A stretch of DNA of 64,000 bases. It comes from a virus. Lineage: Duplodnaviria; Caudoviricetes. The notes beneath the pieces were generated by a model. It ran no database searches. It was not told where the DNA came from and was given only the letters and a program-made list of their open reading frames with translations. The stretch is taken from IMG/VR virus record IMGVR_UViG_3300033179_000002, positions 1 through 64,000 of that record; one strand, written 5' to 3'. The translations under genes and the position numbers were made by a program. This document shows positions 52,461 to 52,579 of the stretch, piece by piece; the stretch's first letter is position 1, and every line of letters begins with the position of its first letter.

Positions 52461-52579
52461 TACTGCCGCCCCGGCGACATCTTCTAGGGTTTCGCTGAAC
52501 GTCAGGCCGGGGCGGCAGTAGTTTGGACCGGTCGGGGCGGCAGCAGTTTGGGTATTGCCTGTCATCGGGCCCCGACCGG
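52461..52579 (-). ncRNA. TIGR-like dual-guide units 6-7 (downstream of the Nop-domain gene)
   Basis: 52528-52579 (11-bp stem; CCC-GATGACAGG-CAATACCCA-AACTGCTGC-CG) and 52461-52520 (15-bp stem; CCT-GACGTTCAG-CGAAACCCT-AGAAGATGT-CG), read on the minus strand. Confidence 0.8.

Follow-up and report, generated by a model that had tools for sequence, protein, structure and literature searches.

An actinophage-like contig carries two hairpins directly behind tasA, a gene for a nuclease-less TIGR-associated (Tas) protein, and the question is whether they are guide units that the gene separates from the rest of their array or structures of another kind. TIGR-Tas is an RNA-guided DNA-binding system described in 2025 (Faure 2025, PMC12045711). 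The window analysed here comprises 64,000 nt, positions 1 to 64,000 of the IMG/VR record IMGVR_UViG_3300033179_000002, and the assembly is a single contig of 80,439 nt with ~69% GC. The contig carries a phage primase/helicase-like gene that is distant kin of mycobacteriophage genes, together with many ORFans. A tRNA cluster with four Rfam matches lies downstream of the TIGR module (60050-61264, + strand). We hold it probable, at roughly 0.85, that the two hairpins (units 6 and 7) form the third sub-array, the one downstream of the gene, in the stem-loop TIGR array of a nuclease-less TasA in an actinophage-like element.

Structure of the array and its effector gene

The stop codon of tasA (TAG, 52588-52586) is followed by six bases and unit 6 begins with the seventh, as the first-pass annotation of this DNA had stated. 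An inverted-repeat search recovered both units as perfect minus-strand hairpins, with 11-nt arms at 52528-52538 and 52569-52579 in unit 6 and 15-nt arms at 52461-52475 and 52506-52520 in unit 7. The arms are 100% complementary with 30 nt between them in each case, in agreement with the stem lengths of 11 and 15 bp that had been claimed. The loop of unit 6 reads C-N10-CAATACCC-N10-C and that of unit 7 reads C-N10-CGAAACCC-N10-C. Both have the geometry CCN-N9-CG..CCN-N9-CG, except that the inner box of unit 6 is CA instead of CG, and the 9-9-9 spacing described at first reading holds once the variable third base of CCN is counted with its box. The minimum-free-energy fold of the minus-strand RNA consists of exactly hairpins 6 and 7 (z = -5.07 against shuffles). 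Folding predictions for unit 7 bring spacers A and B into partial pairing, which lengthens the stem. Spacer B and the start of the 3' arm of this unit can also pair with a stretch 21 nt downstream (52434-52484, minus strand; 15 nt, 80% complementary). These pairings of unit 7 may represent an alternative structure or chance in GC-rich DNA. The CUU processing motif known from other stem-loop clades is not evident at the stem bases of units 6 and 7.

The two units belong, on the gene strand, to the same array as units 1-5, from which they are set apart by the effector gene, and the array is thus split as proposed. The number of units needs correction. Seven had been counted and there are nine, the extra pair (54350-54395 and 54290-54339) lying upstream of a partner gene, orfX. 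The order is two units, the 176-aa partner gene, five units, tasA and two units (Table 1). All nine units share the minus strand with tasA and lie no more than 1 kb from it. They read CCN-N9-CG-linker-CCN-N9-CG, their stems all differ, and the loop is exactly 30 nt in eight of them and 31 nt in one. The stem sequence of unit 2 recurs in contigs L004 and L005 (contigs and loci used for comparison carry L numbers), where it encloses unrelated guides.

Table 1. Features of the TIGR module, listed in the direction of the array (window coordinates)
Feature	Position	Strand	Description
tigRNA unit A	54350..54395	-	first sub-array, upstream of partner gene; 8-bp stem, 30-nt loop
tigRNA unit B	54290..54339	-	10-bp stem, 30-nt loop; 43 bits with covariance model R2
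orfX	53743..54273	-	partner gene between two guide sub-arrays; 176 aa, phrog_4604, helical
tigRNA unit 1	53677..53739	-	interrupted 16-bp stem, 31-nt loop
tigRNA unit 2	53608..53667	-	15-bp stem, 30-nt loop, centre CGATGCCC
tigRNA unit 3	53547..53598	-	11-bp stem, 30-nt loop
tigRNA unit 4	53489..53538	-	10-bp stem, 30-nt loop
tigRNA unit 5	53426..53481	-	13-bp stem, 30-nt loop; ends 24 nt before the tasA start
tasA	52586..53401	-	nuclease-less Nop-domain TIGR-associated protein, 271 aa; true start ATG at 53401
tigRNA unit 6	52528..52579	-	11-bp stem (12 with a G-U pair), 30-nt loop
tigRNA unit 7	52461..52520	-	15-bp stem, 30-nt loop, centre CGAAACCC; closes the array
probable convergent ORF	52275..52460	+	61 aa; stop ends 1 nt before unit 7; codon-position GC only

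Gene callers stretch tasA across units 3-5. A longer ORF from 53608 (340 aa) reads through these units, and the database call P0002 (309 aa) likewise runs through guide units. The ATG at 53401, which yields 271 aa, is taken as the true start because the conserved core of the alignment begins there and because a purine-rich ribosome-binding site and a start codon occupy the same place in L004 and L005. Searches of the product against Pfam gave no match at E <=1 apart from noise and no nuclease domain, and neither an HNH nor a RuvC domain is present in the 271 residues. A profile built from 39 homologues matched the TIGR-TasR structure 9mty (E 1.4e-20) and TasH (E 1e-4). The AlphaFold2 model has a mean pLDDT of 93.3, and Foldseek placed TasR and TasH at the top of its matches, followed by IS621/ISCro4 and archaeal Nop56/58. 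The model consists of two long helices and a Nop core with small beta hairpins, and it contains the Nop-type RNA-binding domain and the coiled-coil dimerisation helix pair expected of Tas proteins. This build, without an HNH or RuvC domain, identifies the protein as a TasA. The Nop core also holds a conserved cysteine cluster (C184, C192, C209 and C211).

PHROGs assigns the protein to phrog_4285 (E 1.7e-60), a family labelled 'transposase', and several Cluster A phage GenBank records share in the mislabelling, with TasA homologues named 'transposase' or 'helix-turn-helix DNA binding protein'. Likeness to IS110/IS1111 recombinases explains the name given to phrog_4285. An IS110-family recombinase was considered and rejected: PF01548 and PF02371 gave no match, and the Foldseek matches to IS621/ISCro4 (E 6e-3 to 2e-2, 9-10% identity) are weaker than those to Tas proteins. 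Homologues of TasA occur in phage records of Mycobacterium (83), Gordonia (5), Arthrobacter (1) and Rhodococcus (1).

With tblastn, the partner gene orfX was recovered immediately ahead of tasA and in the same orientation in at least 21 related loci, and its product is possibly an accessory factor of this TasA clade. Its AlphaFold2 model reaches a pLDDT of 87. The protein has no Pfam match, no PDB sequence match and no Foldseek match at E <=0.001; the best VIA-align Z score is 5.5, for helical segments only, and no fold was assigned.

Tests of the hairpins as guide units

The hairpins are not a by-product of 68.6% GC, because loops of 30 nt are over-represented in the window and concentrated around tasA. 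Perfect hairpins with stems of at least 8 bp number 14 in the 64-kb window when the loop is 30 nt long, whereas each of the other loop lengths occurs 1-7 times. The 2-kb stretch 52461-54395 holds 8 of these 14 hairpins with 30-nt loops. Other hairpins in the window with loops of 30 or 31 nt (at 6766, 22431, 51146 and elsewhere) were rejected as units, since none has the box layout. A covariance model built from eight window units (R1) found only its own units in the window, at 43.5-48.4 bits with the next match at 20.7 bits, and gave 325 matches across 64 loci around homologous genes. A second model (R2) was built from 129 units of other contigs only. R2 scored unit 7 at 34.4 bits and unit 6 at 33.2 bits, compared with 33.5-43 bits for the upstream units and 20.5 bits for the best background in the window; these scores come from a model that is sequence-independent, yet its training units were gathered with a model seeded from this window.

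Column counts over 199 family units give the consensus CCA-N9-CG-A-NN-C-CCA-N9-CG, which is a pseudo-symmetric box C / box D layout. The family stems are 99.3% paired, with 362 double-sided changes compared with 115 in shuffles, in an alignment that was fitted to the model. Double-sided changes occur in all 8 stem pairs of the same fitted alignment, and the covariation score is 0.93, compared with 0.21 after shuffling. An Rfam scan of 45-64 kb returned tRNAs only and no family covering the hairpins. The assignment of units 6 and 7 as guide units is thus upheld by their box layout, by R2 scores of 33-34 bits over a background of 20.5 bits, by their position on the gene strand and by the Tas fold encoded next door.

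Published work describes the same architecture. Stem-loop TIGR arrays have unit-specific palindromic stems and two ~9-nt spacers, with conservation only beside the boxes (PMC12045711; 10.64898/2026.09.09.750476), and private stems with a 9-nt inter-spacer loop have been described for them (Xu 2026, 10.64898/2026.09.09.750476).

Downstream units among relatives and competing explanations

Unit number and position were compared across 44 non-redundant related IMG/VR loci, in two batches. All 226 unit matches in these loci lie on the gene strand. Upstream units are present in 39 of the 44 loci and downstream units within 400 nt in 12, all of which have upstream units too; 10 of the 12 have the start of their first downstream unit 7-13 nt past the stop codon. 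The first two units behind tasA in L005/L006, where TasA is ~71% identical, align with units 6 and 7, and the stem of unit 6 differs from its orthologue there by one compensatory pair. The downstream position is thus both inherited, given this positional orthology, and recurrent, given the 10 of 12 loci with a first unit at 7-13 nt. On these alignments, the split position is an inherited family trait and not a recent accident. Units also occur inside the tasA reading frame in 23 of the 44 loci, one or two in each and ~350-580 nt into the gene, with none in the tasA of the window; such intragenic tigRNA units have been described for BlTasA (Xu 2026, 10.64898/2026.09.09.750476). TIGR arrays are known to sit upstream and/or downstream of tas (Faure 2025, PMC12045711). 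They can flank tas on both sides, and small-RNA sequencing has revealed CsTasR tigRNAs from both sides of the gene (Xu 2026, 10.64898/2026.09.09.750476). The split array around tasA is therefore an ordinary new example of a published trait.

It had also been suggested that unit 7, at the convergence with the + strand genes, may double as a transcription terminator. Such a role, in one or both directions, is unlikely. Unit 7, with its GC-rich 15-bp stem, closes the series of structures 1 nt from the end of a probable convergent ORF. Its hairpin is followed by GUUUGG on the + strand, and actinobacterial terminators can lack long U-tracts. The ORF itself is without homologue support. An intrinsic terminator is not what the minus strand offers, however, where the loop is 30 nt long and the tail (UCACCAACACC) contains no U-run, and a terminator scan found no site at 52400-52600 on either strand. 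Relatives use other arrangements. Behind the last downstream unit stands a co-directional gene in L005, L011, L026, L030 and L037, and a separate canonical GC-rich hairpin with a T-run in L009 (3280-3312) and L032 (3543-3565), so tigRNA units are not the terminators in these relatives. Upstream units of like design must, moreover, be read through for tasA to be expressed.

We consider it quite improbable that decay or loss of guiding has turned units 6 and 7 into relics, kept mainly as 3'-end hairpins that shield tasA mRNA from 3' exonucleases and doing little or no guiding. The inner box D of unit 6 has A where 193 of 199 family units have G (column counts), and this change at a near-invariant position may mean weaker binding or decay of unit 6. 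It is the sole feature that hints at weakened binding, and unit 7 is fully in-family. Rare third bases occur in box C of both units (C and T) and in box C' of unit 7 (T), but the third box C base is relaxed in all nine units of the contig and not in units 6 and 7 alone. The mutual pairing of the unit 7 spacers in the predicted fold would suit relics, as would the presence of downstream units in only 12 of 44 relatives, which makes such units dispensable. Decay is nevertheless hard to reconcile with the exact loop length, the perfect stems and all other box bases that both units keep, or with R2 scores like those of the upstream units. Orthologous downstream units also persist in L005/L006 at ~71% TasA identity, with a compensatory stem change, and this combination points to purifying selection on the hairpin.

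The probability is negligible that the hairpins are DNA-level palindromes (REP-like, or recombination or replication sites) unrelated to RNA guides: their perfect palindromic stems fold on the + strand too, but all 226 family matches lie on the gene strand despite such stems, which marks the asymmetric loop as the conserved part, the loop motifs fit the published box C/D layout, and the adjoining protein is a Tas by sequence and fold.

Guide turnover, proposed mode of action and relation to known systems

If units 6 and 7 are guide units, a further question is how their guides arise. The first-pass annotation suggested that units are acquired or duplicated one at a time rather than by CRISPR-like copying of repeats. 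The second half of this suggestion fits, with no repeats and no adaptation genes at the locus. The first half stands in part: whole-unit alleles are apparently exchanged, whereas stems and positions are mainly inherited, guides are replaced inside them and unit number changes by block indels. Positional orthologues of the window units in L004 and L005 have stems 79-82% identical and box bases 78-81% identical. Their spacers are 27-35% identical, compared with a background of 31% for unrelated units, and the third codon positions of tasA are 61-63% identical. Five extra units are inserted in L005 between the orthologues of units 2 and 3, and unit number thus changes through block insertions or deletions.

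Closer relatives present a similar picture. Four near-identical contigs (L034, L035, L036 and L038, from IMG/VR sample 3300045988) share a 2-kb conserved block. At positions 2051-2500, the 126 nt of spacers hold 8 of the 14 segregating sites of the block and the 124 nt of stems hold none (Fisher p = 3.5e-7 for spacers compared with everything else, and 2e-3 compared with tasA third positions). Three of these spacer changes lie in one spacer. The region between orfX and tasA was also compared in Cluster A mycobacteriophages (L001, L003 and L086-L091: BPBiebs31, Ohno789, Corvo, Bob3, Kanely, Anglerfish, HermioneGrange and Froghopper). Among the seven distinct phages, tasA coding sequences are 96.9% identical on average (95-99%), with no variation in stems, boxes or the linkers between units, whereas corresponding units agree at 32-35% in their 9+9-nt spacers. 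Unit alleles are shared between these phages in a reticulate pattern. Hairpin detection found up to five units in each phage and three in BPBiebs31, and unit 2 of these phages has an 18-nt centre that folds as a mini-hairpin. In this small sample, unit scaffolds (position and private stem) appear to be inherited while the two guides are renewed in place. We tentatively suggest, at somewhat less than even odds, that guides of the TasA clade are renewed in fixed scaffolds far faster than synonymous change, by cassette exchange or by targeted diversification, and that units 6 and 7 share in this. Cassette exchange would take place between co-infecting phages, with conserved stems and linkers serving as homology arms.

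In the loop of each unit, box C (CCN) is followed by the 9-nt spacer A, box D (CG) and a short linker, then by box C' (CCN), the 9-nt spacer B and a box D (CG) that closes into the stem. Units 1-5 would form the leader of the tasA mRNA and units 6 and 7 its 3' untranslated tail. The latter is most likely because a promoter would not fit into the 6-nt gap behind the stop codon. A promoter inside tasA may also drive units 6 and 7, and Xu et al. state the same limit (10.64898/2026.09.09.750476). Upstream of the array, a minus-strand scan for sigma-70-type promoters gave no match. By analogy with published stem-loop systems, a host RNase would cut the precursor near the stem bases and a TasA dimer would hold each hairpin. 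Each spacer would then pair with one strand of a contiguous 18-bp DNA site, A and B on opposite strands, as in published systems, and a complex that lacks a nuclease would block transcription or replication of its target rather than cut it. TasA has been described as a transcriptional repressor (Xu 2026, 10.64898/2026.09.09.750476). An 'intergenic small RNA' of D29/StarStuff (PMC5712189) was considered as evidence of expression and set aside as unrelated; D29 has no annotated tasA homologue there and its 63-64 gap is ~10 nt.

Targets were sought as spacer A plus the reverse complement of spacer B, a layout derived from the published 8-nt 3' overhang and C-5 rule. The 80,439-nt contig has no A+rc(B) or rc(A)+B site with up to 4 mismatches beyond chance. 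The 18-mer of unit 6 has one exact match in IMG/VR, in the portal gene of L084 (47% GC), which is about the chance expectation, and that of unit 7 has none. Likewise, 24 distinct guides from eight mycobacteriophages gave no match with up to 3 mismatches in the whole BPBiebs31 genome, where controls (control geometry, shuffled guides) gave a few matches with 2-3 mismatches.

The closest known systems are PlTasA from a Peromyscus leucopus gut contig (Faure 2025; Guan 2026) and BlTasA from Bifidobacterium longum (Xu 2026), and a cryo-EM structure exists for the stem-loop PlTasA (10.64898/2026.08.11.744272). They share with the present locus a nuclease-less Nop-domain protein, tandem hairpins with unit-specific stems, a 9-nt inter-spacer loop and an array laid out in sub-arrays, of which PlTasA has three. 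The present locus differs in its actinophage lineage, its ~69% GC, a box C relaxed to CCN, a conserved small partner gene inside the array and a tasA without an intragenic unit. CsTasR of Candidatus Staskawiczbacteria (Xu 2026) is a direct precedent for the split array, although it has an inactive RuvC domain, large insertions and an inter-spacer loop with a 5-bp stem, and comes from a CPR bacterium rather than a phage. Dual-repeat TIGR-Tas systems (TaTasR, SpTasH and FpTasA; Faure 2025) have the same dual-spacer logic, box C/D anchoring and arrays upstream and/or downstream, and the solved TasR and TasH structures among them are the best matches to this TasA. Their edge and loop repeats are conserved and the Tas Y/H dyad cuts 36-nt products, whereas the edges here are variable stems and processing is presumably left to the host.

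Likeness to other guide systems is more distant. The IS110/IS1111 recombinases with bridge (seek) RNA have a related RNA-binding domain (Foldseek matches IS621 and ISCro4) and split guides in RNA loops. Unlike them, the present system has no DEDD/RuvC catalytic domain, no Tnp serine domain and no transposon ends, and it has many single-loop units in place of one two-loop RNA. CRISPR arrays also place short guides beside an effector gene, and these guides differ between close relatives. Here, unlike in CRISPR, repeats, leader-polarised growth and Cas1/Cas2 are absent; every guide consists of two parts and reads both DNA strands, and turnover takes place inside fixed, unit-specific scaffolds.

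The split array as originally described changes little in the understanding of these systems; it contributes a clean case of such an array, of the stem-loop TIGR type, from an actinophage. Placement right after the stop codon is shown to be recurrent, with a first downstream unit at 7-13 nt in 10 of 44 relatives. Database entries are corrected as well, from 'transposase' or 'HTH protein' to TasA, along with ORFs that had been overextended through guide units. Among the papers searched, none treats TIGR in mycobacteriophages beyond a reference. The in-place turnover of guides is the only fresh lead and may matter more than the split itself. It bears on how TIGR arrays acquire spacers, and culturable mycobacteriophages provide an experimental system. 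If true, in-place renewal would be the first handle on how TIGR guides are gained, with ~80 sequenced Cluster A mycobacteriophages as a test bed.
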